In this document: piece by piece, positions 32,641 to 48,999 of the stretch
How the letters are laid out: every line of letters begins with the position of its first letter
Position numbering within the stretch: the first letter of the stretch is position 1
Assembly (NCBI GenBank): GCA_009838625.1
Contig: VXRG01000039.1
Location: forward strand, 401 to 64,400
Direction: 5' to 3'
DNA from: Caldilineaceae bacterium SB0664_bin_27
GTDB lineage: Bacteria > Chloroflexota > Anaerolineae > Caldilineales > Caldilineaceae
DNA length: 64,000 nucleotides
Made by a program: the position numbers and the translations under genes
Notes under the pieces: generated by a model
The model's input: only the letters and a program-made list of their open reading frames with translations
What the model was told of the DNA's origin: nothing
Database searches by the model: none

Positions 32641-34587
32641 TCAACTATTTCCGCCGTGTACGATCCCGGCCCGTGCCAATGCTTCCAGGATCCGCTGCGC
32701 CAGTTCGTCCGCGCTGTGCCGGTCCGTCTCCAGCACCATCTCCGGCTGCACCGGCTCCTCATAGGGGGCCGAGACGCCGGTGAAGTTCGGGATCTCCCCG
32801 CGCTCGGCTCGTTCGTAAAGCCCTTTGGGATCCCTTTCTTTGCAGATTTCTACGTCGCACTTGACGAAGAGTTCCCAAAAACTGCCTTCCGGAGCCAGCG
32901 CCCGCGCCGCCTCCCGGTCCTCCGCGTAGGGCGAAATGAACGTGCACAGCACGATATTGCCATGCTCAAGGGCCAGTCTGGCCACCTCTGCCACCCGGCG
33001 AATATTCTCTGTGCGCGCCTCCGGGCCAAAGCCCAGATCGCTGTTCAGACCATGGCGCACATTGTCCCCGTCCAACGAGAAAGTACGTACACCCAACGCA
33101 AACAACCTCTGTTCCAGGGCCTTTGCCACTGTCGACTTGCCCGAACCGGAGAGCCCAGTGAACCAGAGCACCGCCGCCCCATGCCCGTTCAACTCCTCCC
33201 GCATCGGCCGCGTGACAGCGACCGGCTCCCACACCACGTTGGAGGAACGAGACGCACGGAGAGAGGGCGCCTCTCTCTCTTCCTGCTTCTGCACCAACTC
33301 ACTCACCCGCCGCGCCCTGTCCCGGATCATGCCTGCCGCAACCGTGTTGTTGGTATGGGGGTCGATGAGAATGAAGCTGCCTGTGGCGCGGTTAATCTGA
33401 TACGAATCGAAGAAAAGAGGCTCTGTGGTCACAATCTGCCCGCGGCCGATCTCATTCAGACGCAGTGTTGGCGCTTCTTCACGGTGCATCGTGTCCACAT
33501 TAATGCGGTAGTTCAACTCCTGGACCGAGGCGCGCACACGCCGCGTCGACTGCTGCAACCAGTACCACTGTCCGCTGAAATTATTGGAGACCGACCACTC
33601 TATTTTCATTGGCTCTTCGCTCATCCAGCACAACGTCGCGTCGATCTGATTGGATGAGTGGGGCAGGTTGCGCACCCGCACCAGCATGTCCCCCCGGCTG
33701 ATGTCGATCTCATCCTCGAGCGTTATCACCACGCCGTCGCCGGCAGCTGCCCGATCGCAGCTCTCGTCGCCGCGATGAATTCCCGCCACACGGCTGCGGA
33801 TACCTGCAGGCAGCGCTACCACCTCTTCACCCACCCCAATGCGGCCCGATACGATCTGCCCGGCGAAACCGCGGAAGTCAAGGTCAACGGCACTGTTTGC
33901 CCTGATTACATACTGTATCGGCAGGCGAAAGTCCACGTTGTTGCGACCTGCCCCAATGTTGACCGTCTCCAGGTGGTGTAGAAGCGTTGCGCCGTGGTAC
34001 CAGGGCATGTTTTGGCTCTGGCTCACAATATTGTCCCCGTGCAGCGCGGAGATAGGAATATACACCACGTTTCGCATGTTGAGCTTGGCAGCGAAAGCGC
34101 GGTAGTCACCAACGATCTCCTGGTAGCGCGTCTCGCTGTATTCGACCAGGTCCATCTTGTTGACGGCGACAACGACATGGGGGATCTGCAATAGAGAGGC
34201 GATAAAACTGTGCCGCTTCGACTGCGTGAGGACGCCTTTGCGGGCGTCAACCAATATGATCGCCAGATCCGCCGTGGAGGCGCCGGTCACCATGTTGCGG
34301 GTGTACTGTATGTGCCCGGGCGTGTCGGCGATGATGAACTTGCGTTTGGGCGTCGCAGTGTAACGGTAGGCAACGTCGATCGTAATGCCTTGCTCCCGCT
34401 CCGCTCTCAGCCCGTCGGTCAGCAGCGCCAGGTCGACCGAAGGGTCGCCGCGGGCTGCGCTCGCCTGCTCGACCGCTTCCATCTGGTCTTCGAATATCGC
34501 TTTGGAGTCGTATAACAACCGCCCAATCAAGGTCGACTTGCCGTCATCGACACTGCCGGCGGTGGAGAAGCGTAGTAGGTCCATCAC
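32641..34587 (-). CDS. cysNC: bifunctional sulfate adenylyltransferase subunit 1 / adenylylsulfate kinase (CysN-CysC fusion)
   Basis: GTPase G1 GSVDDGKST, DTPGH and NKMD, plus a C-terminal APS-kinase P-loop FTGLSGSGKST. Confidence 0.9.
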   Translation of the reverse strand: MMDLLRFSTAGSVDDGKSTLIGRLLYDSKAIFEDQMEAVEQASAARGDPSVDLALLTDGLRAEREQGITIDVAYRYTATPKRKFIIADTPGHIQYTRNMVTGASTADLAIILVDARKGVLTQSKRHSFIASLLQIPHVVVAVNKMDLVEYSETRYQEIVGDYRAFAAKLNMRNVVYIPISALHGDNIVSQSQNMPWYHGATLLHHLETVNIGAGRNNVDFRLPIQYVIRANSAVDLDFRGFAGQIVSGRIGVGEEVVALPAGIRSRVAGIHRGDESCDRAAAGDGVVITLEDEIDISRGDMLVRVRNLPHSSNQIDATLCWMSEEPMKIEWSVSNNFSGQWYWLQQSTRRVRASVQELNYRINVDTMHREEAPTLRLNEIGRGQIVTTEPLFFDSYQINRATGSFILIDPHTNNTVAAGMIRDRARRVSELVQKQEEREAPSLRASRSSNVVWEPVAVTRPMREELNGHGAAVLWFTGLSGSGKSTVAKALEQRLFALGVRTFSLDGDNVRHGLNSDLGFGPEARTENIRRVAEVARLALEHGNIVLCTFISPYAEDREAARALAPEGSFWELFVKCDVEICKERDPKGLYERAERGEIPNFTGVSAPYEEPVQPEMVLETDRHSADELAQRILEALARAGIVHGGNS

Positions 34588-34658
34588 TTATCCCAGTGTA
34601 TCGTTTTCAGCAACCAGTGGAAGTAACTTTGACACCGATTGTTCATAAACCCCTGCAG

Positions 34659-35702
34659 CTAAAAATATCCCAGCCGCTTCCTGTCTTCCATCGCGGCCTC
34701 GCTGCGGCGGTCGTCGGCCCGGTCGCCCCTTTCTGTGATGCGTGCGGTCGCGACCTCCTCAATGATGTCCGTCAAAGCACTCGCTGAGGAGCGAAACGCG
34801 CCTGTACAGGTCATGTCGCCGATTGTGCGGAATCGCACAGTTTCACATCTGACTGTTTCCCCCGGCCGCGGTATGACGTAGGCCCCAACCGCCAGCAGAA
34901 TCCCATCCCTGTTTACTATCTCGCGTTCGTGGGCGAAGTAAAGGCTGGGCAGGTCGATCCCCTGCTCGGCGATGTACTGCCAGATATCGAGCTCGGTCCA
35001 GTTGCTGATGGGGAAGACGCGGAAGTGCTCGTTGCTGAGTTTCCGGCCGTTGAAGAGGTTCCACAGTTCCGGCCGCTGGTTCTTGGGATCCCACTGGCCA
35101 AAGCCATCGCGGTGGGAGAAGAAGCGCTCCTTCGCACGCGCCTTCTCTTCATCGCGGCGCGCGCCGCCCAGGGCTGCGTCGATGCGCAGTTCTGCCACCG
35201 CATCCAGCAGTGTAACCGTCTGCAACCGGTTACGGCTGGGATCGCCGTCCGGCTCCTCCTGAACGCGCCCGGCGTCGATCGAATCCTGCACCGAACGCAC
35301 CACCAGGCGTACGCCCAGCTCCTCTACCAGTTCGTCGCGAAAGGCAAGCGTTTCAGGAAAGTTGTGACCGGTGTCGATGTGCAGCAGCGGAAAGGGAATT
35401 CGCCCCGGCGTAAATGCCTTGTGCGCCAGATGCGCGCAGACGATCGAATCTTTGCCGCCGGAAAAGAGGAGACACGGCCGCTCAAACTGCGCCGCAACCT
35501 CCCGCAGCACATAAATCGCTTCCGCCTCAAGTTGACGCAAATGCCCGGTCAGAGGAGTGGACGGCCGCACCTGGGTACGGACGGGCTCACTGGTCGAAGA
35601 TCTGTCTGCCTCCATCTTCTCATCCCCAGCGTTGCTGCGGAGTCCAGCGGCCTCATGTGCTTCTACCGGTTCAGCACCTGCTGGCAGGGTCGTGTCGTCC
35701 AT
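34659..35702 (-). CDS. cysD: sulfate adenylyltransferase subunit 2 CysD (about 50-aa N-terminal extension or later start)
   Basis: LRQLEAEAIYVLREVAAQF, PP-loop FSGGKDS, HIDTGHNFPE. Confidence 0.85.
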   Translation of the reverse strand: MDDTTLPAGAEPVEAHEAAGLRSNAGDEKMEADRSSTSEPVRTQVRPSTPLTGHLRQLEAEAIYVLREVAAQFERPCLLFSGGKDSIVCAHLAHKAFTPGRIPFPLLHIDTGHNFPETLAFRDELVEELGVRLVVRSVQDSIDAGRVQEEPDGDPSRNRLQTVTLLDAVAELRIDAALGGARRDEEKARAKERFFSHRDGFGQWDPKNQRPELWNLFNGRKLSNEHFRVFPISNWTELDIWQYIAEQGIDLPSLYFAHEREIVNRDGILLAVGAYVIPRPGETVRCETVRFRTIGDMTCTGAFRSSASALTDIIEEVATARITERGDRADDRRSEAAMEDRKRLGYF

Positions 35703-38183: not shown

Positions 38184-41100
38184 GTGGGGGACTGTATCTC
38201 TGCCAGCAAAGCAGGGGAACGCGGAGCCGATGCGCGCGTTTGCTTCTCTCTTGGAACTGGTAGAGCCAGCAGTCCGTTGATCAGTTGTTTGCCGCCGTGC
38301 AATAGCCACAGGTGTCAGGAGCGTCATCTGCCCGGTAACGTTTACCAGAAGTCTCTGCTCATCCGCCGCCTCCCACAGGGCTGGGACCGGAGGCCTTGGG
38401 CCGTGTTTGTCTGTCTGCTAAGTGGGTTTCTCTTCCTGTTGATCACGGGCCATGGCGCCGCGCCTGCACACGCCGGGACCCGACCTGCGCTGCCGCGGCA
38501 GTCCACGTCCGGGGCCGCCCCCATCGACGTAATCGTCATCCTCGATGACTCCGGCAGCATGGCCACCTGCTGGCCTTGGCCGCAGGGCCAACCTCCCTCC
38601 GGGCCCCCATGCGATGACGCTACTCTTAACGCCCCCAGCGACCCCAACGAACTGCGCTACAGCGCGGCCCGCCTGCTGGTCCATCTCGCCGACAGCGCCG
38701 ACCGCATCGCCGTGCTGCGTTTCGACAGTACCGCCGAGGGCGTCGGCTCGATGAGCCTGTTGCAGGAGGTCGGCAGCGCTGAAAACCGCAGCCGGCTGGC
38801 TGCGTCGCTCCAGTCTCCCGAGGACTATGCCCTGCGCGGCTACACGCGCATGGATTTGGGACTGAAGGAGGCGCTGCAGCTGCTCGAACTTCACGGCGAC
38901 CCTAATCGCAGCCAGTATGTGCTGCTGCTGACCGACGGGGAGCCAACAGCGCCGTTACAGGTCACCGGTCAGCGACAGACCATCACCAATCTACTGGCTC
39001 AGATCGGGGACGCCGGCGCACTGCTCTACCCCGTGATCCTCTGCAATCCCGATGCGGGCTGCGCCGGCGATTTTCTCAAAACCAGCTCTTCGCTCGCGCG
39101 CGAGGCCAAGAGCTCGCAGGACCTCCTGCTCATCTTTAGCGAACTATTCGCCGAAATGAAGTCGGACCGCTCGGTCGTCACCCACCGCAATGTGCACGGG
39201 AACCTGACCGTCTCAATCCGCAAAGCGCATGGCGCCGGCAGCATTGCCTTCGTCAGCCCGCAATCCGCGATCACCGCCGTAGAGCGGGACGGCGCGCCGA
39301 TGCTGACTCAGAGCCTGCTCGCCGACGGCAACATCGACCTAAACGTGGCTGTCGCGCCGCTGGCTGCCGGCGAATGGGTGGCAAAGACGACCGACCTGAG
39401 CAGCTTTGCCGTCGTCCAGGCCGACAGCTATCCTGAGCTCCTTTTCCCGCCTCCCAGCGTACTGGGCAACGCCGCCTCAGCGCGCTACTACCCTGCCGGC
39501 AAGTCGCCTATCATCGTCGTTGCCGGCGCCGGCCCCGCCGTGGACGAGCCGCTGATGCTCAACGGCAATCTGCCCATCGCACTCCTGGGTCAGGACCCGA
39601 TTAGCGGTCGAACGGTCGCCGTCCAGCAGCTTTCCGGCGGCGTGGAAGAGGTTACAGTTCAGTTGGGAGAGGACCGAGAGCCGTTACAGCTGCGGCGCAC
39701 CTTCCGGCTCCAGACCTCGGAGGAGCTGCCCCAAGCACAGGTCTTCTCCCCCTCAGCCAGCAATCCTGGAATCCTGCAAGACGGCAGCCTGCAACTACAG
39801 ATCGGTTTTGGCCCCGGCAGTCAGTTGGATGATCTCCAGGCCGCTGTCTACGTTACCGACCTCGACGGCGGCGAAATCGTCTACCGGAGGCGGATCAGCT
39901 GTGGTGAACATGTCTGCTCCGACGACGGCTTTATGCCGCAGGACGGGCGTGACTACGAAGCGCTCTTCCTGGTGACGGCGGCCATCGATGGAGTCCGTTT
40001 CGGAGACTATGCGCGCACGCTCTTGGAAGTAGAACCGGCGATCTACGTGAAGGGACTGCCGGCCGATATCGATCTGGCCAAGATGCCGCCCGAAGGATGG
40101 CCGCTCACGATCCAGGCCAGTACGGTTGAAGAGATTGGAACGCTGGAGGCGTCGCTGGTCCTGCGCCGGTCCGATACAAGCGAAATCATGCGCGAGGCCT
40201 CTGTAAGTCTTTCCGTAGAGGTGCCCGAAAACGGTATCCAGACGGCGCTTCTGCACGTGGACGGCCTCGACCTGCTGCGCCCGGGCCAGTACGAGGGCCA
40301 ATTGAATCTGTCGGCTCTCAGCCCGGCCGGACTGCCTATGGAGGTACAGGTTCGTCCTGCCCCATCGCTGGCTGTGCTCTTGGACATCCCCCGCTCCCAG
40401 GCACGCATCCAGGTGCAGGAGGCCGACTTCGGCGCGCTGCTCTACGATACATCACCGAATTACCGGCTGGATGAGCAGATCCTGCTGCCCGTCGCCTACA
40501 GCGGGGATACCCCCTTTCGGCTGACGGTTGAACTGGCCGAGAGTAGCTGCAGCGGCCTCACCGCCACTGCTGGTGACCTGCAACCCTTCGAAGCGACGGG
40601 CGACAGCGCGGCTAACTCCGCGGGCTCAGATGGTTTGCAGCCGGCGAACTGGGCGCTGCCGGTTCGCCTGCAAAGCGAAGGGACCATGTCCGCCGGCAAC
40701 TGCCACGGGCTCCTCAGTTTGGCCGGTCCCAGCCAGGACTTCGATGTCCTGTCCGCACACTCCTCCTCAGGCGCGGGTCCCTCCTCAGAGGCGACAGTGC
40801 CCTTCCGTCTCCAGATCCGCGATGTGGAGTGGGGTGTCGCCGGCGCGCTCGATTTTGGCGATCTGGGGCGGGCGGGCGAAAGAGCGACGGAAACGCTCTT
40901 TCTGCGCTTTAACGGAAAAACGCCTTTTGTGCTTGAAATCGTTGGGCTGACCGCATCGGGAGAGGCTGGCAGCGGCGTGATGAATTTGGATGAACTTTTC
41001 CTGGAAGCCCCGCCGGTCGAAGTCAACGGTTTGCCTGATGAAGAAGGCTTCTTCGAAGTCCCCGTCATCCTCATCGCCCGCAAAGACCTGCCCAAAGATG

Positions 41101-41858
41101 CTCTGCGCGGCTCCTTTTATAGTGGAGTGCTGCAGCTGAGCATTGTCGGCCTGGCCGGCGAGATGAGGTCTGTCGATATCAGTTTCCGCAGTCCAACCCT
41201 CTATCAGCGCTACGTTGAGTGGTGGTTGCGTCCGTTCTACACCTTCCCGCTGGTTTTCTGTAGCGGACCTGTGCTGCTCCTGGGGTTGCTCATCGTGGTG
41301 GCGCGTGCCCGCACTCGCGGGTACAATACGGATGACGACGAAGATCCGGGAGTGATTCTGCCTGGGCAGGATTCCCCTCTTGCGCCTGGGTACGCTGCCG
41401 CCCCCGGCAGTCCGGACGGCTGGCATCACGCTAGCGGGTCGGAAACCGCATTCGTCACGTCGAATGTGGCCGGGGGTTCGGCGTACGCGTCTTACCCACC
41501 GCCCGTCCCTGGACCGGAACCGGCGGCAGGTTCGCCAGGCAATTCCGCTGCTTTTGAGAATATCGCTGATACCTCTCCTGAGCGTTTTGCCGGTTCCGGC
41601 AGTTCGGACAGTTGGCAAGGCGCCGGTGAGGGAACGCAAAAGTCCGCTTGGGACACAGCCTGGGACCAGAGAGGCTGGGGGCCGGACCCTTACTCTTCCT
41701 CAGCGTCCGGGGACTACGGACGGACAGAACAGCCCGGCGACAACTCGAACTGGTCGTCTCCCTCTTCGGGCGATGGGGCGTTTAGCGACGAGCACAACAG
41801 TTCATCCGCCGGCGCGGGTTCGGCTGACCCATGGGGCAGCCCGCGCGACAGCTTCTAG
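38184..41858 (+). CDS. large type-I-like membrane protein: signal/anchor, vWA domain with MIDAS, about 700-aa beta-rich ectodomain, TM, disordered cytoplasmic tail
   Basis: MIDAS IVILDDSGSM plus LLLTDGEPT. Hydrophobic leader WAVFVCLLSGFLFLLITG...AHA. C-terminal TM LVFCSGPVLLLGLLIVVA followed by RARTRGY and a Ser/Gly/Pro/Asp/Trp-rich tail. The true start is uncertain (GTG at 38184; no in-frame ATG before the signal peptide). Confidence 0.75.
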   Translation: MGDCISASKAGERGADARVCFSLGTGRASSPLISCLPPCNSHRCQERHLPGNVYQKSLLIRRLPQGWDRRPWAVFVCLLSGFLFLLITGHGAAPAHAGTRPALPRQSTSGAAPIDVIVILDDSGSMATCWPWPQGQPPSGPPCDDATLNAPSDPNELRYSAARLLVHLADSADRIAVLRFDSTAEGVGSMSLLQEVGSAENRSRLAASLQSPEDYALRGYTRMDLGLKEALQLLELHGDPNRSQYVLLLTDGEPTAPLQVTGQRQTITNLLAQIGDAGALLYPVILCNPDAGCAGDFLKTSSSLAREAKSSQDLLLIFSELFAEMKSDRSVVTHRNVHGNLTVSIRKAHGAGSIAFVSPQSAITAVERDGAPMLTQSLLADGNIDLNVAVAPLAAGEWVAKTTDLSSFAVVQADSYPELLFPPPSVLGNAASARYYPAGKSPIIVVAGAGPAVDEPLMLNGNLPIALLGQDPISGRTVAVQQLSGGVEEVTVQLGEDREPLQLRRTFRLQTSEELPQAQVFSPSASNPGILQDGSLQLQIGFGPGSQLDDLQAAVYVTDLDGGEIVYRRRISCGEHVCSDDGFMPQDGRDYEALFLVTAAIDGVRFGDYARTLLEVEPAIYVKGLPADIDLAKMPPEGWPLTIQASTVEEIGTLEASLVLRRSDTSEIMREASVSLSVEVPENGIQTALLHVDGLDLLRPGQYEGQLNLSALSPAGLPMEVQVRPAPSLAVLLDIPRSQARIQVQEADFGALLYDTSPNYRLDEQILLPVAYSGDTPFRLTVELAESSCSGLTATAGDLQPFEATGDSAANSAGSDGLQPANWALPVRLQSEGTMSAGNCHGLLSLAGPSQDFDVLSAHSSSGAGPSSEATVPFRLQIRDVEWGVAGALDFGDLGRAGERATETLFLRFNGKTPFVLEIVGLTASGEAGSGVMNLDELFLEAPPVEVNGLPDEEGFFEVPVILIARKDLPKDALRGSFYSGVLQLSIVGLAGEMRSVDISFRSPTLYQRYVEWWLRPFYTFPLVFCSGPVLLLGLLIVVARARTRGYNTDDDEDPGVILPGQDSPLAPGYAAAPGSPDGWHHASGSETAFVTSNVAGGSAYASYPPPVPGPEPAAGSPGNSAAFENIADTSPERFAGSGSSDSWQGAGEGTQKSAWDTAWDQRGWGPDPYSSSASGDYGRTEQPGDNSNWSSPSSGDGAFSDEHNSSSAGAGSADPWGSPRDSF

Positions 41859-42011: not shown

Positions 42012-44489
42012 ATGGAGCAGAACGGGGCGCCTTTTATTAGTGAAAAGCCAACAATCTATCCGACCCTCGTGGTCGGCGTAGGCGGTATGGGCACCAACGC
42101 TGTACGGGCCGTCAAACGGCGCCTGCGCAAAGCCTGGGGCGGCGAAACGCTGCCGGCGATGATTCAACTGCTGGCTCTGGATACGGAACCGCTGATCAAC
42201 CGGCTCGATCAGGAGCCCCTCTATGCCGATGAATCGGCCTACATGGGCAAATTTGACGCAACCCGCCTCGTCGATAACCTCGAAAACCATCCCGAAATCG
42301 CCCGCTGGTGGGACTACCCATCGATCCCTCTTGGCTATATCCATAACGGCGCCAAACAGCTGCGGCCCATCGGGCGGCTCTCCTTCTTCCGCAACTACGT
42401 CACCTTCAAGAGGCTGTTGGAGACGAAATACGCCGCCCTGGACAAGATCCGCGATCTGGAGATGGCGCAGAATCGCCGCTTTCCCGTGATGAGCAACTAT
42501 CAGCTCGTCTATGTCGTCAGCAGCCTCTGCGGCGGTACCGGCGCCGGCATGTTTATGGACGTGGCGCACCGAGTGCGCGCCCTCGTGCGCAGCAACGCTC
42601 GCGTCGTCGGCATCTTCTTCCTGCCCGACGTGCTAGAAGAAGAGATCAACAGCGACCTGCAGCGCCGCCGCATCAAAGCCAACGCCTACGCCGCGCTCAA
42701 AGAACTGAACTACTTCCAGGAAACGCAGCAGTTCCAGGAACTCTATCCCAGCGAACAGCGGGCACTGCCCGACACACCCTACGCACCGTTCGACTTTATC
42801 TTTCTGGTCGGGCGCACCAACCGCGACGGCCGCAGCCTGTCTCGTAAATCCGATGCTGAAAACCTGGCCGCTCATCTGATTCAACTCACAGCCATCAGCC
42901 ACCTGAGCAGCGAGATTCTCGGGCTGGAAGTAAACGTCGTGCGGGAACGCATGTCCGGTAGCGTCGCCGCCGCCGAGGTAGTTAACGACCGCCGCACCGG
43001 TCGGCCTCCGGCGAAGGGAAACTACCTGGTCTACAGCAGCTTTGCCGCTTCCGCGATCGTCGCGCCGGACGAGTCACTGGTCAACTTCTGGCAACAGGCA
43101 TTCCTGGCAGACTGCATGCGGCGCCTGGCCGCCGGGCCGGAGCTCAACGACCCGCGCCAGCCTATTTCACCGCAAACACGCCAGAAGGTTATCACCGCCT
43201 GGCAGGGACTCCTGGCCAGGATGCGCTCCCGCTATCTCTCGTTGGACAACGACCGGCTGGAGGAGATGGCCGAGGAGGTCGAGGAACAACGCGGCGCATG
43301 GCTCGGTTTCAAGACCGCGGTCGACGAAACTTTTCGCCAGGTGATCCTCGATACAGGACTGCGCGGCGCACTGGAGCTGGCCGACCTGCTGGCGCCGTTG
43401 AATCCTTCCACCGCGCCCAACGAATCGCTGATAAAGCAAAGACTTTTCCTGCTGAACAACCACCCGGTCATGGAAGAGGACCGCGCCCGTTGGCGCTCGT
43501 TGCTGGCCCAGCAAGGAGGCGCGGCGGAACAGATCGGCCAGATTGCCGGCGGACTGGGCGACCTCATGCTCGCGGCCTTCAACCCCCGCCAGGCCCGCGA
43601 TCGCGCCCGAGACATGCGCCAGCGCAAAGCCCGCTCCCGTCTTCACCAGCGCCGCGACATCCTGGAACGAATCCTCGTCGAGCGCCTCTTCGCATACGGA
43701 ACGCAGATGCGGGAGCTTTTCCGCTCACAGATAGACTATACCGGCAGCGCGCTGGGCCGGGCTAATCACGCGGCAAGGCGGGCCGCCGAACGCATCGACC
43801 CCCGCATCTCCGACGGCACCGCCAGCACCAACACGTACTATGAACTGGAGACCGGCGCCGTCGGGCGCGACTATCTGCAACACTTCTATCGCAACGCAGC
43901 CCAGGTCGTCTACCCCAGCGACTGGGAGGTCCTGCTCGGGCCCGTAATCGATCGCACCCTGAACTTCGGACGGGCGGTCAGCGGTGAGGAGCTCTTTGCG
44001 AACCTCACCAACGCAATCGCCACCGAAAGGGGGCTGCTGGGCAGGGTTCTGCAGTGCGTCGACATCCGTCACATTATCGGTGTCCAACATGGCGAAGAGA
44101 CCCAGCAGGCCCGGCCTCTGCCCAACAACCGCGTCCAGCAGTGGCTGGACCGTCTGAACCCCTACATCCGCTGGGATTCGGACCGCTTCAGCTTCCACGA
44201 CGGCAATCTGGAGCACATCCGCCTGGCGGCCACACCGTCAACGCGCGAAGATGATGCCCAGTTGGCGATGGCGATGGTCGGACAGGAGGACATGAAATGG
44301 ATACCCACCGGCGACACAGGACGCATGGACGCCGTCTGGATCGTCCACGGCCTGCCTGTGACGCTCATCGACCGCCTTGACGAGTTTCGGGCACAATATG
44401 AAAACAAACTCGATTTCCCCGCCCGCGAGGAGTTTCATCTCCATCCCGCCTGGGTCGACCTGCCCGAAATCACTGAAAACGATCTCTAG
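42012..44489 (+). CDS. tubulin/FtsZ-like GTPase (Pfam 'Tubulin-like' type) with a long alpha-helical C-terminal extension
   Basis: T1-loop-like TLVVGVGGMGTNAVRAV (compare FtsZ GVGGGGxNAV) and T4 signature-like VVSSLCGGTGAGMFMDVA (compare GGGTG(S/T)G). 825 aa. Confidence 0.75.
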   Translation: MEQNGAPFISEKPTIYPTLVVGVGGMGTNAVRAVKRRLRKAWGGETLPAMIQLLALDTEPLINRLDQEPLYADESAYMGKFDATRLVDNLENHPEIARWWDYPSIPLGYIHNGAKQLRPIGRLSFFRNYVTFKRLLETKYAALDKIRDLEMAQNRRFPVMSNYQLVYVVSSLCGGTGAGMFMDVAHRVRALVRSNARVVGIFFLPDVLEEEINSDLQRRRIKANAYAALKELNYFQETQQFQELYPSEQRALPDTPYAPFDFIFLVGRTNRDGRSLSRKSDAENLAAHLIQLTAISHLSSEILGLEVNVVRERMSGSVAAAEVVNDRRTGRPPAKGNYLVYSSFAASAIVAPDESLVNFWQQAFLADCMRRLAAGPELNDPRQPISPQTRQKVITAWQGLLARMRSRYLSLDNDRLEEMAEEVEEQRGAWLGFKTAVDETFRQVILDTGLRGALELADLLAPLNPSTAPNESLIKQRLFLLNNHPVMEEDRARWRSLLAQQGGAAEQIGQIAGGLGDLMLAAFNPRQARDRARDMRQRKARSRLHQRRDILERILVERLFAYGTQMRELFRSQIDYTGSALGRANHAARRAAERIDPRISDGTASTNTYYELETGAVGRDYLQHFYRNAAQVVYPSDWEVLLGPVIDRTLNFGRAVSGEELFANLTNAIATERGLLGRVLQCVDIRHIIGVQHGEETQQARPLPNNRVQQWLDRLNPYIRWDSDRFSFHDGNLEHIRLAATPSTREDDAQLAMAMVGQEDMKWIPTGDTGRMDAVWIVHGLPVTLIDRLDEFRAQYENKLDFPAREEFHLHPAWVDLPEITENDL

Positions 44490-44563
44490 CACTGTATTGA
44501 CAACCATTCCTGCCGTAGATCGGTGGACCTGTACCGACCCCGGCAATCTGTTATAAAATAAGT

Positions 44564-44597
44564 CACTTGGCGCCGAACGCAACCCGGCAGCCAAGTG
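44564..44597 (+). promoter_or_regulatory. 8-bp perfect stem-loop between the two tubulin-like genes
   Basis: cacttggc (44564-44571) / 18-nt loop / gccaagtg (44590-44597), 27 nt upstream of the ATG at 44624. Confidence 0.35.
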
Positions 44598-44623
44598 CTG
44601 GAAACCGAAATCTAGAAACTACC

Positions 44624-47600
44624 ATGATTCCCGGCGCAACCCGCAGCCGAGCTGCAATACTATGTCTTGGTGGATGGGGTCTGCAGACGATGCTCCATTT
44701 GGCGCCGCGTCTGCACTCCGCCCAGGAACAGCGAAACGCTACCGGCGCCGACGGACCCGATCTGACGCGCATCACCCGCTTTGCCGCCCTCCTGCCGTCC
44801 GATCAACTCAATCATCAGGACGAAATTTCTCTCAATCTGTTCACCCTGCGTGATAACCGTCTCCCGCCCTTCTATCTCGAACGGCTGCTCACCGAACTTA
44901 TGCGGTCGCCGCCCCCTGCCGTCCCTGAACTGCCGCAAACCACCAACCACTGGCGGCGGGCAACGAGCCAGCGGCGGGCAAGCCTGTTGCTCGCGTCGGC
45001 CGCAGACACGCTGCACCCGCTCCAATGGCAAGACGCAACATCTTCCCCGTATCCACCTGGGTCGGTGGGAGACTCGCCCACAGCCGCAAAGCCTTCTCGC
45101 AGAGGTCTGCCCTGGCCATTCCGCAGATCGAACAAGGATGCTGACACCGGCGGTGTTCCCGGCAGCGCAGAGAGCCCTCCCGCATCGCCCACAGCCCCGC
45201 CCGATACGCCAACGCGGCGGCATGCATTTCGTGCCGCGATTAACGAAGGCGGCAGCATCGCCCATCTTGTCGCCTCCAATATCATCGATCCCATCCGCGC
45301 CGACACCCTTGTTCCCGGCGATCCCTTCGTACAGACGACTCTGTATGTGATTGCACCCCTCTATGAACCGCTGACGTCGGCACTGATCTGGCCAACGATC
45401 GCGCACCAGCTCAACTATCTGGGCCAGCGTCACATCGCCCAGGTCGTCGGCATCTTCGCCGCCGGCAGCTACGCCACCGACACCAATCGCACTATCGAGG
45501 ACGCCTCCTGTTACGCGGCGCTGGCTGAATTGGAAGCGTTCACCGGCCTGCGTCGCGCCAACCTCAAACAGGTCATCTCTTCCATCCGGAAAGGCTCCAA
45601 GGCACGGGGCACACTGCCAGATGAGTGGCTGGGACGACCGCTCTTCGACCGCATCTATCTGGTAGATCGGGAAAAGAGCAATCAAGGCCTGGCCCGCAAC
45701 AGCTACGAACTCTCCGTCCTCGTTGGCAACACCCTTCAGGCGCTCATCGCCGCCGATGGAGCCGCCTACATCGATGAACAGGTCGGTATTGATCTGCGCA
45801 ACGCCAGCGAACGGCCCTACAGCCTGCTCGGTGCAGCCGCCGATCATGTGCCGCTGGACTATATCTTCCGGGCCGCGCAGCAGCACGAGGGCAAGCGGCT
45901 CGTACGCGAGCAGGTCCTGCTCCAGCCTGGAAGCGCAGACGGTTCAACCGCCGCCGGTTCACCCTCGACCGGGACTGCCACCCACTTGGAGCCACTGGCC
46001 TCGCTGCAGCAATTGGGCGCAACCTCGCATCAAGCACTGAACCGGCTCATCGGGCAGATGCCCGACCTGTTCAATGAGCTGAATCCCGAAACGATCCAGG
46101 ATCTTGCAGTCCATTCGGGATATGTGCTGCCGTCGGCGACTGCGCGCAAGCTGCGCGGTCTCAATCCGGTCCGCTGGCAGGCCGCCTTCGACAATCAGTT
46201 CCAGAGTGTGATGGCCCAGTCTGACGAGGACTTCGGCGCCGGCGCTCTGGATACGGCTTGGGGACTGGCCGCCCTGGACGAAGACGGTATACCTGTTGAC
46301 CCCACCGACAAACGCTTCCTGCCGGCCGTTGAGCAGCAGATGCGCGCCCACCTGCTCTCACTGATTGGCTCCGAGCCGTCAGGACTCCTGCACGCGCGAC
46401 GCCAACTCCACCAGTGGCTGTTTGAATTGGAGCAGGAACGACTCTGGCCGTCGTTGGCAACAGGGGACGCCGCCGCCTTTACTCCTGCTGATGCAAACCG
46501 GGTTGAACGACAATTGGAGCTGCGCGACTGGCGCAACCGCTATCGACGCACGCTCGCCGATAAACCTTCTCTGTTCGGATCATTGACGCGGGTGCTCGGT
46601 CTGCTGAGTGGTATCGTTCTGCTGACACTTCTCTATCTGTTCAGCTCCGGGTTGGTCGGCAGTGCGGACGATATCGTCACCGTGCAAAACGATCCCTCCG
46701 TACTTACCCAGCTGATGACCGGCGCGTCTCTGGACGCAGTCGTCGATTTCATCGGCAACGAAGCCAACGCCGCCACATTCATCGGGCTGATGATCGGCGC
46801 CTTTCTCGGCGCGATCACCTCCTATCGGAGGAGGGCGCAGCGCGTGCAGAAGCTGCGGCGCGAGCGGGTCAATCTGGCCTGTTCTGAACTGACCGCCCGT
46901 CTGCAGGACAGCGTTTGGCGGGGAATGGGCCGCGTCCACGATCGTCTGGAACAAATGCTGAACCAGATGGACAATGTTCTCGAACAGACCTGCCGATCTT
47001 TGCAGGACTGGTCTGTCAGCGAAAAGATGCCGCCCCTCCCGCCGGAGGATGCGATCACCTCCCATCTGTACCGGCCCCATCTCAGCCAGAATATGTGGGA
47101 ACGCTGCCTGGCCTTCATGCGCGGCCGCCAGGATGTTGATGCCGGCATCCAGGCGGCTGGACCTCCCCATTCCGCCGCGAGTGGCAACAGGGGAGGGGAA
47201 GGGCGCCTGCGCGTCATCTGGACAGCGCCCCAACGTCTCGAACGGCTAGCTGCGCAGTTCACCGGCCAGGAAGTGTCGTCCCGCCCTCTTACGGATATTC
47301 TGGCTTCTTATGTTCGCGAGTGCGCTCAGGCTGCCGTCGGCGAAAGCCAGACATCCCTCCCCGAGCAGGAGCCGGGCGGTGGCAGGGCCGCGCTCGACAG
47401 CGAAACCGAAATGGCGCACAAGGCCTTCGTACGCTCGCTCGCACAGGAGTACAATCTGGAGCACCTGCTCTGGCGCGACACGACCTCGGCAGAAGGTTTT
47501 GCCTCTCTCTATCCGGATGGGGAGTTCACGCCGATCTCTACCGCCACCCTGCGCTATCTGGAGACTATGTGGAATGCCGCAAAGCCCTCCGCCAACTACG

Positions 47601-47920
47601 ACGTATCGGACCGGCTTGCAGCACATGGGCTGCCAGTGGAGTTCGCAGCGGTCTCCGGCGCCCCCGACAGCGACCTGACCGAAGACGTCTTGCAAAGCCT
47701 GCGCATCCCCCGTCTGTTGACCGGCAATCCTTTTCAGATCGCCTTCGTACGCACGCTGCACGGTCTGGAGCTAAGAGATCTGGGAAGCATGACTCGCTAT
47801 CTGACCGAATTGGGCCGGATGGACAGCGCCTCACGCCAGCAGATCCTGCTCACGGACGCCATCCACGCCGAGATGTATAACCAGCAAGACCCGCGCAGCT
47901 CCCGCTCCGCCTGGTCATAG
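44624..47920 (+). CDS. degenerate tubulin-like paralog with low-complexity insert and two TM helices
   Basis: Collinear with the preceding protein. Matched blocks (this protein vs the preceding one): AAILCLGGWGLQT vs LVVGVGGMGTNA; VVGIFAAGS...CYAALAELEAF vs VVGIFFLPD...AYAALKELNYF; LFDRIYLVDRE vs PFDFIFLVGRT. The T4 motif is replaced by APLYEPLTSAL. TM helices are LGLLSGIVLLTLLYLF and FIGLMIGAFLGAI. Start preferred at ATG 44624. Confidence 0.7.
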   Translation: MIPGATRSRAAILCLGGWGLQTMLHLAPRLHSAQEQRNATGADGPDLTRITRFAALLPSDQLNHQDEISLNLFTLRDNRLPPFYLERLLTELMRSPPPAVPELPQTTNHWRRATSQRRASLLLASAADTLHPLQWQDATSSPYPPGSVGDSPTAAKPSRRGLPWPFRRSNKDADTGGVPGSAESPPASPTAPPDTPTRRHAFRAAINEGGSIAHLVASNIIDPIRADTLVPGDPFVQTTLYVIAPLYEPLTSALIWPTIAHQLNYLGQRHIAQVVGIFAAGSYATDTNRTIEDASCYAALAELEAFTGLRRANLKQVISSIRKGSKARGTLPDEWLGRPLFDRIYLVDREKSNQGLARNSYELSVLVGNTLQALIAADGAAYIDEQVGIDLRNASERPYSLLGAAADHVPLDYIFRAAQQHEGKRLVREQVLLQPGSADGSTAAGSPSTGTATHLEPLASLQQLGATSHQALNRLIGQMPDLFNELNPETIQDLAVHSGYVLPSATARKLRGLNPVRWQAAFDNQFQSVMAQSDEDFGAGALDTAWGLAALDEDGIPVDPTDKRFLPAVEQQMRAHLLSLIGSEPSGLLHARRQLHQWLFELEQERLWPSLATGDAAAFTPADANRVERQLELRDWRNRYRRTLADKPSLFGSLTRVLGLLSGIVLLTLLYLFSSGLVGSADDIVTVQNDPSVLTQLMTGASLDAVVDFIGNEANAATFIGLMIGAFLGAITSYRRRAQRVQKLRRERVNLACSELTARLQDSVWRGMGRVHDRLEQMLNQMDNVLEQTCRSLQDWSVSEKMPPLPPEDAITSHLYRPHLSQNMWERCLAFMRGRQDVDAGIQAAGPPHSAASGNRGGEGRLRVIWTAPQRLERLAAQFTGQEVSSRPLTDILASYVRECAQAAVGESQTSLPEQEPGGGRAALDSETEMAHKAFVRSLAQEYNLEHLLWRDTTSAEGFASLYPDGEFTPISTATLRYLETMWNAAKPSANYDVSDRLAAHGLPVEFAAVSGAPDSDLTEDVLQSLRIPRLLTGNPFQIAFVRTLHGLELRDLGSMTRYLTELGRMDSASRQQILLTDAIHAEMYNQQDPRSSRSAWS

Positions 47921-48009: not shown

Positions 48010-48999
48010 CTAATCCGCTACTGCTTCGCCGTACGCTCGCGCCGTGTCTGCCCTTTCCTCGTCGGACTCCCCTGGACGCGCCGGCGGGATGCCCTCAATG
48101 CCATCGGCAGCCAGCACCGGGATCAGGGCGGCAATCGCACATTCGACCATCGAATCATCCGGCGCGCGGGTAGTTATGCGCTGGAGCAGCAGTCCCGGCG
48201 CAATCAGCAGCCGCATCAGCGGGTTTTCGGCGTGATTGGCACTGAAACGGATAATCTCATAGGAGATCGCGGCAACCAGTGGGACCAGCAGAAGACGGGT
48301 GACAAAACGCAAAAGCAGCGCCAGCCAGGGGTACTCAATCCAGGCAAATGTGAGAGGGGCGAATAGAAGTATGCTGATAACAAGCACGTACAGTAGGAAG
48401 CTGGTCCCGCAACGTACATGCTGCACACTGTACTTCTGTACATTTTCTATCGTAAGTCTCGCGCCGGCCTCGTAGGCGTTGATCGCCTTGTGCTCTGCGC
48501 CGTGATATGCAAACACGCGTCGGATATCAGGCAAAAGGCTGATTGCCCACAGATAGACGACAAACAGAATCAGGCGGATACCGCCTTCGGCCACGGCGTC
48601 GAGATAGGGGTTGTGTTCAAAGAAGCCGGCAAACCAGCGGCTGGCCAGGGTGGGTACAAGGAAGAAAATCGCCACCGCAAAGGCAAGACTCGTCGCGATC
48701 GTCGTCCACGCCACCGGGCCGGAAAACTCGACCTGCTCCTCGGCATCATCCTCCTGCATCGCTACGTCCGCGCTCCACATCAGCGCCCGCATCCCCAGCC
48801 CAAGCGCATCCCACAGCAGGGCCAGCCCTCGTACGAACGGCCACTGCCCCCACTTGCGCGTATAGATCCTGGCCGTGAGGGGTTCCTCGTGGATGACGAT
48901 CGTACCCTGTGCGTTTCGCACGGCAATCGACATTGCCTTGCGGCCCCGCATCATCACGCCTTCAATTACAGCCTGACCGCCGTAGTATTGCTTGCTCAC
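48010..48999 (-). CDS. DUF1385 domain-containing membrane protein (YqhQ-like)
   Basis: N-terminus [14 protein letters not shown] is the DUF1385 hallmark, and HGAEHK is also present. GTG start. Confidence 0.8.

Follow-up and report, generated by a model that had tools for sequence, protein, structure and literature searches.

Can a protein that has lost the nucleotide-binding signature of the tubulin superfamily and is predicted to be built into the membrane still be a sister of the tubulin-like GTPase encoded next to it, and what could it do there? This question arises from a stretch of 64,000 nucleotides (nt) from the Chloroflexota member Caldilineaceae bacterium SB0664_bin_27 (contig VXRG01000039.1, positions 401 to 64,400 of the forward strand), in the following called the window. 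Three large open reading frames (ORFs) follow each other on its + strand and encode a protein with a von Willebrand factor A (vWA) domain (38184-41858), FtsZl1 (42012-44489) and a third protein, whose ORF ends at 47920 and starts either at 44567 (TTG) or at 44624 (ATG). Since the homologs of the third protein start at the ATG at 44624, with MIPGATRSR, we consider it to be 1098 amino acids (aa) long, and the product of ORF 44624-47920 is referred to here as the T4-less paralog. FtsZl1 is the branch that is most divergent and least understood within the FtsZ/tubulin superfamily, and a sequence-only reading of the window had proposed that the T4-less paralog is a tubulin-like paralog of this upstream gene product. 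Profile comparisons, Pfam searches, a structure model and synteny bear this out: the T4-less paralog is a full-length, very divergent and ancient paralog of the adjacent FtsZl1. The most fitting description of its family is that of a new, degenerate sister family of FtsZl1 with a predicted transmembrane (TM) anchor.

Profile comparisons relate the T4-less paralog to FtsZl1

A pairwise BLASTP comparison of the two proteins detected no significant similarity, and the relationship was revealed by profiles. The relationship is visible through profiles only; a formal alignment of the pairwise kind, named by the sequence-only reading as a means of refutation, would have failed as a criterion. The profiles were built from 75 relatives of the T4-less paralog (A3) and from 19 or 54 relatives of FtsZl1 (A2, A4). 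At full length, hhalign matched them marginally (E 0.002-0.004, probability 8-13 %), with an alternative alignment being collinear over aa 10 to 1079 of the T4-less paralog, and splitting by domain was required for significance. The GTPase-like domain (aa 1-435 against aa 1-370 of FtsZl1) then matched with a probability of 83 % and P 9e-6 (reversed-template control P 0.3), whereby aa 188-400 were aligned to aa 112-316. The C-terminal domain (aa 800-1098 against aa 600-825) matched with a probability of 53 % and P 1.3e-4 (reversed control P 0.1), whereby aa 934-1063 were aligned to aa 674-796. Taken one at a time, three further regions gave no significant hhalign match, namely aa 1-135, the middle region and the TM/basic (coiled-coil) region; the first 135 aa and the stretch comprising TM helix 2 (TM2) and the basic residues behind it nevertheless align with FtsZl1 in the expected register. 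The agreement of two separate domains, in identical order, suggests that the gene was duplicated as a whole. The layout of FtsZl1 is kept: a tubulin/FtsZ-like N-terminal domain, a helical middle part, a long helix and a C-terminal domain.

Five blocks shared with the upstream gene had been picked out by eye, and all of them fall into register in the profile-profile alignments. At the position of the T1 loop, AAILCLGGWGLQT of the T4-less paralog stands opposite TLVVGVGGMGTNA of FtsZl1, and at the T4 position YVIAPLYEPLTSA stands opposite YVVSSLCGGTGAG. Further, VVGIFAAGS/CYAALAELE corresponds to VVGIFFLPD/AYAALKELN, FDRIYLVDRE to FDFIFLVGRT and, in the C-terminal part, LHGLEL to VHGLPV. The blocks equivalent to T5/H5/S6 read VVGIFATGSY..EDA..YAAL.ELE and FDRIYLVDREKSNQG, against VVGIFFLPD..ANAYAALKELN and FDFIFLVGRTNRDG in FtsZl1. 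The basic stretch, one of the five blocks, has the expected register without being significant alone; since the TM/basic region lacks a significant profile match of its own, this block is no independent evidence.

Tubulin_2 was the sole family retrieved by a Pfam scan of the T4-less paralog (E 1.1e-3, aa 274-427, profile positions 199-355) and the only Pfam family in 11 of 24 diverse relatives (E ≤ 0.01; best 9.6e-5). Pfam gave no match to FtsZ_C or Tubulin_C in the T4-less paralog; the T7 loop/H8 with its catalytic acidic residues and the C-terminal superfamily elements are likewise unidentifiable in bona fide FtsZl1 (Makarova & Koonin 2010, PMC2875224). A sequence search of the PDB found relatives neither for the T4-less paralog family nor for the FtsZl1 family.

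The AlphaFold2 model of the T4-less paralog (mean predicted local distance difference test score, pLDDT, 77.7; predicted template modelling score 0.70) has strands (E) and helices (H) in the order E9-15, H16-40 ... E238-245, H255-266, E271-280, H288-306, E343-348, and the alternation continues up to H411-431. This is an N-terminal Rossmann-like domain with the S1-T1-H1 ... S4-T4-H4-S5-H5-S6 topology of the superfamily. The prediction of the structure, which the sequence-only reading had proposed as a check, led mostly to tubulins, CetZ and FtsZ: approximately three quarters of the top 50 Foldseek matches in the PDB are alpha-, beta- or gamma-tubulin, CetZ or FtsZ, with 206-252 aligned columns and probabilities of up to 0.99. 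A search of the viral folds in BFVD gave no useful information, as phage FtsZ and tubulin did not come up before ranks 12 and 29.

The insignificant BLASTP result, the low full-length hhalign probability and a Pfam score below threshold could mean that the similarity to FtsZl1 is due to chance or convergence, and that an unrelated membrane protein merely happens to be encoded in the operon. We give this explanation hardly any credence. Two independent domains are collinear, with P values of 9e-6 and 1.3e-4 against 0.1-0.3 in the reversed controls, Tubulin_2 is the sole Pfam family and recurs among the relatives, and the predicted structure, as an independent line, leads to tubulin, FtsZ and CetZ. 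In addition, there is a motif-by-motif match for T1, S4, S5/H5, S6 and the YS..GA.A..VP strand. We conclude on paralogy because profile similarity in two collinear domains, the Tubulin_2 matches and the AlphaFold model are joined by a nearly obligate synteny with FtsZl1.

Synteny of the T4-less paralog with FtsZl1 and the vWA gene

For the analysis of synteny, 78 genome loci were examined by tblastn; the DNA patterns of the genome scan confined this set to Caldilineaceae-like relatives. In 74 of the 78 loci, the next gene upstream is FtsZl1, encoded on the same strand; one further locus ends at a contig edge, and the vWA gene is present upstream in 68 loci. Thus, the question whether such loci always pair one intact and one degenerate copy is answered with yes for 74 of them and with no for three (L050, L075 and L078), which harbour an orphan member. 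The sequence identities of the vWA protein, FtsZl1 and the T4-less paralog co-vary across the loci (Spearman 0.96), and the T4-less paralog evolves fastest, with approximately 36 % identity where FtsZl1 has approximately 66 % and the vWA protein approximately 45 %. Outside of this set, the order vWA→Tubulin_2→family member was found on independent contigs for the distant members P0363 and P0383, which were detected by exhaustive search only (E ~1e-7 to the target), and a vWA gene is present in the loci L079 and L080.

The three orphan members (L050 9001-12132, L075 9001-12195 and L078 9001-12204; 33-34 % identity) come from Caldilineaceae genomes, and neither FtsZl1 nor a vWA gene is located less than 9 kb away from them. 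Around those in L050 and L075, there are unrelated genes for a Uma2 nuclease, an RNase D-like protein, an M20 peptidase and a DUF11 surface protein. The orphan members may be second copies or relocated genes.

A conserved T1-type loop and a replaced T4 motif

The FtsZl1 of the window has an intact T1 motif (GVGGMGTN), an intact T4 motif (SSLCGGTGAGMF, which contains GGTGAG) and no TM segment. In the T4-less paralog, the T1-like loop G16-G-W-G-L-Q21 follows strand S1 and is in register with the GGMGTN of GVGGMGTN. G17-W18-G19 is found in all 66 sequences having the N-terminus and Q21 in 69 of 69, while distant members retain G.G.(F/W)G at this position. GGWGLQ is a T1-type loop of the form GGxGx(N/Q), comparable to GGGGxN of FtsZ and GxxGxQ of tubulin.

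The loss of the GGTGAG signature at the T4 position, which was claimed from the single sequence, turned out to be family-wide. The position reads A-P-L-(F/Y)-E-P-L-(T/A)-S-A-L-I-W-P in 75 of 75 sequences, with P245, E248, P249, W256 and P257 being invariant, whereas S-L-C-G-G-T-G-(S/A)-G is retained in all 120 homologs of FtsZl1. Distant members mostly have L.(E/D)P or TWEP at this position, and in the model its pLDDT is about 95. An intact motif at another place would speak against this loss; of 142 representatives drawn from the whole library (50 % clusters), none that is a full-length member has GGTGxG. Since T4 is replaced across the whole family, its loss is old and fixed. Purifying selection on the family is strong: 62 columns are invariant in 75 sequences that go down to 35 % identity.

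A recently decaying, pseudogene-like copy was also considered and is ruled out by this strong family-wide conservation; the T4-less family is old and selected.

To our knowledge, the backbone amides of the glycine-rich T4 loop hold the phosphates in all characterised members of the FtsZ/tubulin superfamily. From the structures of FtsZ and tubulin it is a reasonable inference that canonical binding and hydrolysis of guanosine triphosphate (GTP) were lost in the T4-less paralog. Judged from its sequence, it would be a pseudo-GTPase, in which the residues for nucleotide binding are gone while the fold and the selection on it are kept.

On the other hand, the T1-type loop GGxGxQ is fully conserved, and therefore a non-canonical ligand site is possible. 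The T4-less paralog could then be an active, membrane-bound second GTPase, in which the T1 loop and E248-P249/W256-P257 form a non-canonical site for a nucleoside triphosphate or another ligand. The invariance of GGWGLQ (66/66) and of H25, R29, Q34 and R37 in helix H1 fits such a site, and so does the strong conservation of the blocks equivalent to T5/T6 (VVGIFATGSY, FDRIYLVDREKSNQG). However, all members examined have a bulky and acidic segment with proline in place of T4, and its invariant Glu, which stands where the phosphates would bind, would repel a nucleotide. An active enzyme is, in our opinion, distinctly improbable.

A predicted membrane hairpin and two clade-specific insertions

Two TM helices had been proposed at approximately 46570-46830, in a region where FtsZl1 is only weakly hydrophobic. 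Both predicted helices lie inside this range (Table 1) and are supported by hydropathy and by the positive-inside rule; the hydropathy maximum of FtsZl1 over 19 residues is 1.22. There are six K/R before the first helix (TM1) and eight after TM2, while the loop between them contains no K/R and six D/E. According to the positive-inside rule, these basic flanks and the acidic loop predict a TM hairpin of N-in/C-in orientation, with both large domains in the cytoplasm. No signal peptide was found in the T4-less paralog, and in the model TM2 runs on into a helix of 85 residues (aa 713-797). All full-length family members scanned, even the most distant ones, have at least one hydrophobic segment, and the listed members usually have one or two at about aa 550-720, while 119 of 120 FtsZl1 homologs have no such segment. 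The collinear alignment places TM2 together with the basic stretch opposite the weakly hydrophobic GGLGDLMLAAF-NPRQARDRARD of FtsZl1. This alignment is not significant alone and is suggestive of a weakly hydrophobic helical hairpin of FtsZl1 that may have been replaced by two TM helices in the T4-less paralog. A membrane-integral member of the tubulin superfamily is indeed unusual, as had been remarked, but it is not unprecedented, since a TM-fused FtsZl1 was described in Sulfolobus (SSO1376, PMC2875224).

The region between the T1 and T4 positions contains a Pro/Ser/Ala/Thr-rich insert (aa 96-196), in which these four residues make up 53 %, compared to 32 % in the whole protein. The pLDDT falls below 50 at aa 101-109 and 136-191, and aa 136-191 are disordered in the model. 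A low-complexity insert of approximately 140 aa had been described at this place; it is there, but it comprises approximately 100 aa and is clade-specific. As it is long only in the close clade of the window's protein and much shorter in the other relatives in the alignment, it is a lineage embellishment and no character of the family. The loop between the TM helices (aa 676-715, 46649-46768) is similar in this respect: it has about 40 aa and is acidic in the clade of the window's protein, and has about 10-15 aa in most relatives. It is a second clade-specific insertion and is predicted to face the cell exterior.

In the Foldseek search, the helical/TM-hairpin region (aa 565-800, approximately 46317-47023) resembled pores and pre-pores of the AhlB/SmhB type (E 0.02-0.15). 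This raises the possibility that the T4-less paralog is an autonomous membrane-remodelling or pore-forming protein that acts through its helical/TM region, the tubulin-like domain being a mere scaffold. Its layout would be like that of the helical hairpins with hydrophobic heads in tripartite alpha-pore-forming toxins, or of the GTPase, helical bundle and TM hairpin of mitofusin/atlastin; AhlB/SmhB matches were also obtained with the FtsZl1 model, and three genomes harbour the gene without an adjacent FtsZl1. However, the superpositions on AhlB/SmhB have root-mean-square deviations of 14-36 Å and TM-scores ≤ 0.31, as is expected for any long helical hairpin, so that the likeness is probably a generic similarity of long hairpins in the model. 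Moreover, neither Pfam nor PADLOC matched the protein to families of toxins or dynamins, its two termini are predicted to lie in the cytoplasm, a signal peptide was not found, and the synteny with FtsZl1 (74/78) would be hard to reconcile with autonomy. Such a function is highly improbable.

The Foldseek list of the FtsZl1 model also comprises tubulin, CetZ and TubZ besides the long helical hairpins of AhlB/SmhB, which is only suggestive in view of the poor model. The AhlB/SmhB-type matches obtained with both models hint at a helical hairpin common to both paralogs, with a tip that is hydrophobic only in the T4-less paralog.

A putative membrane tether for FtsZl1

Based on these observations, we lean towards the view that the T4-less paralog, being itself GTPase-dead, tethers or regulates FtsZl1 at the cytoplasmic membrane. 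In the proposed mechanism, the T4-less paralog would no longer bind or hydrolyse GTP in the canonical way, and would pair with the soluble, GTP-competent FtsZl1 via the tubulin-like and C-terminal domains that both have in common. This pairing would fix the GTP-dependent assembly of FtsZl1, or the start or end point of the assembly, to the cytoplasmic face of the membrane, where the T4-less paralog would localise, nucleate or limit it. Such a mechanism fits the membrane-remodelling hypothesis put forward with the description of the vWA-FtsZl1 operons (Makarova & Koonin 2010, PMC2875224), and would supply the physical membrane anchor.

The vWA protein offers a possible link to the outside. It has a hydrophobic segment at the N-terminus, the motif DDSGS of the metal ion-dependent adhesion site (MIDAS) type and a C-terminal TM helix (aa 1021-1039, numbered from the GTG-start ORF). 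The region bearing DDSGS is presumably external to the cell. The approximately 185 aa after the TM helix (especially 41301-41855) are of low complexity and contain many Ser, Gly, Pro, Asp and Trp residues; this tail, predicted to lie on the cytoplasmic side, is a candidate site of contact with both tubulin-like proteins. The FtsZl1/T4-less pair would thus sit next to a single-pass vWA protein with an extracellular ligand-binding domain, and the trio could form a transmembrane module in which an extracellular adhesion/MIDAS domain is coupled to a membrane-tethered GTPase of the tubulin superfamily. Going one step further, the FtsZl1 system might be an obligate machine of two co-assembling paralogs, one soluble and GTP-competent and the other signature-less and membrane-integral, as a prokaryotic counterpart of the division of labour between alpha- and beta-tubulin in which one partner is built into the membrane. 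With the extracellular vWA/MIDAS protein, the two would make up an integrin-like link from outside ligands to a cytoplasmic polymer of the tubulin superfamily or a membrane-remodelling assembly. This extended reading is speculative, and taken as a whole it is rather unlikely.

Several points weigh against a membrane tether of FtsZl1. BLASTP between the two proteins gave a best E-value of 2.5, the Tubulin_2 score of 18.8 bits is lower than the gathering threshold of 27 bits, the E-values of the tubulin-type Foldseek matches are merely 0.04-0.3, and the model of FtsZl1 is poor (pLDDT 61) and too weak for a fair comparison of the folds. The orphan members in L050, L075 and L078 lack a nearby FtsZl1. 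Strong selection still acts on the former pocket region (invariant T1 loop and H25/R29/Q34/R37), which could mean a bound ligand. Finally, the interaction with FtsZl1, the membrane insertion and the nucleotide-binding status of the T4-less paralog are all inferred, and a polymerisation of FtsZl1 is itself hypothetical (PMC2875224).

Alternatively, the T4-less paralog could be a negative regulator or capper, i.e. a mimic of FtsZl1 that is unable to bind GTP and terminates or sequesters the assemblies at the membrane instead of nucleating or tethering productive ones. The homology and synteny evidence for this role is identical to that for tethering, and the data do not separate the two. A subunit mimic without nucleotide can in principle occupy one end only of a head-to-tail polymer with the longitudinal contacts of FtsZ and tubulin; however, a T7-type loop was found in neither of the two proteins, and T6-H7 was not found in FtsZl1 by Makarova & Koonin (PMC2875224) either. 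We consider capping to be an unlikely role.

The putative tether shows likeness to several known systems without being one of them. It shares with the FtsZl1 family (Makarova & Koonin 2010; PF13809) the profile homology in the core and in the C-terminal domain, the length class, the domain order and the T1-type loop, and it is encoded in a vWA operon beside a bona fide FtsZl1. In contrast to FtsZl1, it has no GGTGxG, stays below the Pfam threshold, has a predicted TM hairpin and evolves about twice as fast. The pairs alpha/beta-tubulin and BtubA/BtubB are an analogy in so far as one of two adjacent or co-expressed and presumably paired paralogs has a fully functional exchangeable/hydrolysing site and the other does not. 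However, alpha-tubulin binds GTP and keeps the signature, whereas the T4-less paralog has lost it and is predicted to be membrane-integral, and a heterodimer is only presumed. In its proposed role of anchoring a soluble GTPase of the tubulin superfamily to the cytoplasmic membrane it resembles FtsA, ZipA and SepF. The folds of these proteins are unrelated to FtsZ and they bind its C-terminal peptide, while the putative tether described here is a degenerate paralog of the GTPase itself. Its architecture is similar to that of mitofusin/atlastin, the bacterial dynamin-like GTPases and AhlB/SmhB: a (pseudo-)GTPase domain of globular shape is followed by a long bundle of helices, by two TM segments or a hydrophobic hairpin, and by more helices. 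Its G domain, however, is of the tubulin/FtsZ type and matches none of these sequence families; with respect to AhlB/SmhB, there is no Pfam match and the structural superposition is poor (rmsd > 14 Å). PADLOC and NCBIfam scans of all three operon proteins gave zero matches, and therefore a known defence system is without support.

Our literature search found no publication on the T4-less paralog family or on an active/dead pair of FtsZl1, and no experimental function of FtsZl1 since its description in 2010. If our interpretation is correct, it provides a testable model of how the FtsZl1 system reaches the membrane, namely through a heteromeric pair and the vWA protein, and adds a bacterial pair of an active and an inactive paralog to the tubulin superfamily.

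Distribution and annotation of the family

The closest relatives of the T4-less paralog are found in metagenome-assembled genomes (MAGs) of Caldilineaceae (Chloroflexota), several of them labelled SB0661 or SB0665. Members are also present in MAGs labelled Litorilinea aerophila (L035, L061). Litorilinea aerophila is a cultured species, and the presence of the family in these MAGs means that experiments may be feasible. A third homolog search, with an alignment of the distant members as query, returned eight proteins.

In Chloroflexus aggregans, Cagg_1317 (vWA), Cagg_1316 (FtsZl1) and Cagg_1315 (1083 aa, 'COG0576 GrpE') have the same layout as the operon described here (PMC2875224). According to the table of this survey, the third gene was apparently already seen in 2010, but was not recognised as FtsZ-like. 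The FtsZl1 beside the distant member P0363 resembles Cagg_1316 over the N-terminal stretch given in the alignment of that paper, and P0363 itself (1084 aa) has a weak Pfam match to GrpE. By length, position and the common weak GrpE match, Cagg_1315 and Clostridium kluyveri CKL_1665 ('B8') are apparent members of the family.

Weak matches to GrpE (PF01025) were obtained for P0363, P0378 and P0382, and P0386 (MFN2203641.1) is annotated as 'DUF1932 domain-containing protein'. Both labels look spurious and like a product of coiled-coil/helical regions. If the family is what we propose, annotations such as 'hypothetical', 'GrpE-like' and 'DUF1932 domain-containing' need correction.

In the Chloroflexus-like operon of L079 (9897-14579), the family member is followed by genes for proteins of 183 aa and 403 aa and for a 966-aa protein with weak matches to DUF87/HerA-type ATPases. 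The downstream genes resemble Cagg_1314 and Cagg_1313 of the 2010 table, which suggests additional, lineage-specific components in the Chloroflexus-like version of the operon.

Transcription of the operon and neighbouring genes

The features discussed here are listed in Table 1. FtsZl1 and the T4-less paralog are separated by 134 nt (44490-44623). A promoter/terminator consensus scan of the operon including this gap called no element and yielded nothing that exceeds the shuffled expectation, and therefore the two genes are likely to be co-transcribed. A TTGACA hexamer is located in the gap and is followed after about 50 nt by the A/T-rich sequence TATAAAAT.

Table 1. Position of the T4-less paralog, its parts and the surrounding genes in the window.
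Feature	Position	Strand	Basis
DsbA-like double thioredoxin-fold protein, 487 aa	36093..37556	+	Pfam Thioredoxin_4 E 5e-45, DSBA E 2e-20
Large vWA-domain membrane protein	38184..41858	+	Pfam VWA_2 E 4e-5, VWA E 1.4e-3 (both under gathering score)
FtsZl1 / Tubulin_2 GTPase, intact paralog	42012..44489	+	Pfam PF13809 E 2e-60
T4-less paralog of FtsZl1 with predicted TM hairpin, 1098 aa	44624..47920	+	alignments, Pfam, model, hhalign
Tubulin/FtsZ-like (Tubulin_2-like) domain, aa 1-435	44624..45928	+	hhalign, Pfam, model, Foldseek
S1 strand and T1-type glycine loop, aa 9-22 (RAAILCLGGWGLQT)	44648..44689	+	conservation, alignment with GVGGMGTN
Pro/Ser/Ala/Thr-rich, mostly disordered insert, aa 96-196	44909..45211	+	composition, pLDDT
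S4 strand and degenerate T4 position, aa 238-257 (TTLYVIAPLYEPLTSALIWP)	45335..45394	+	replaces GGTGAG, aligned to YVVSSLCGGTGAGMF
Predicted TM helix 1, aa 657-675 (VLGLLSGIVLLTLLYLFSS)	46592..46648	+	Kyte-Doolittle 19-mer mean 2.15
Predicted TM helix 2, aa 716-734 (AATFIGLMIGAFLGAITSY), followed by basic stretch RRRAQRVQKLRRER	46769..46825	+	Kyte-Doolittle mean 1.64-1.66
C-terminal domain common with FtsZl1, aa 934-1063 (NLEHLLWR ... KPSANYDVSDRLA ... TGNPFQIAFVRTLHGLELRDL)	47423..47812	+	hhalign
DUF1385 gene, downstream flank of the T4-less paralog	48010..48999	-	

The start codon of the vWA gene is uncertain, and the GTG at 38184 is probably too far upstream. The vWA gene is preceded by the DsbA-like gene, with the same orientation, and tblastn detected such an upstream gene, likewise on the same strand, in 54 of the 78 loci. 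The DsbA-like protein may belong to the module, for example for disulfide formation in the large extracellular vWA protein.

On the other side, the DUF1385 gene is followed by genes of a Liv-type ABC transporter. The genes flanking the three-gene operon are functionally unrelated to it. Further upstream, a fused CysN/CysC-type protein of 647 aa (EF-Tu-like GTPase and adenosine phosphosulfate kinase) and a protein of 346 aa of the phosphoadenosine phosphosulfate reductase family are encoded on the - strand (32641-35702); this sulfate-assimilation pair appears to be unrelated to the T4-less paralog.

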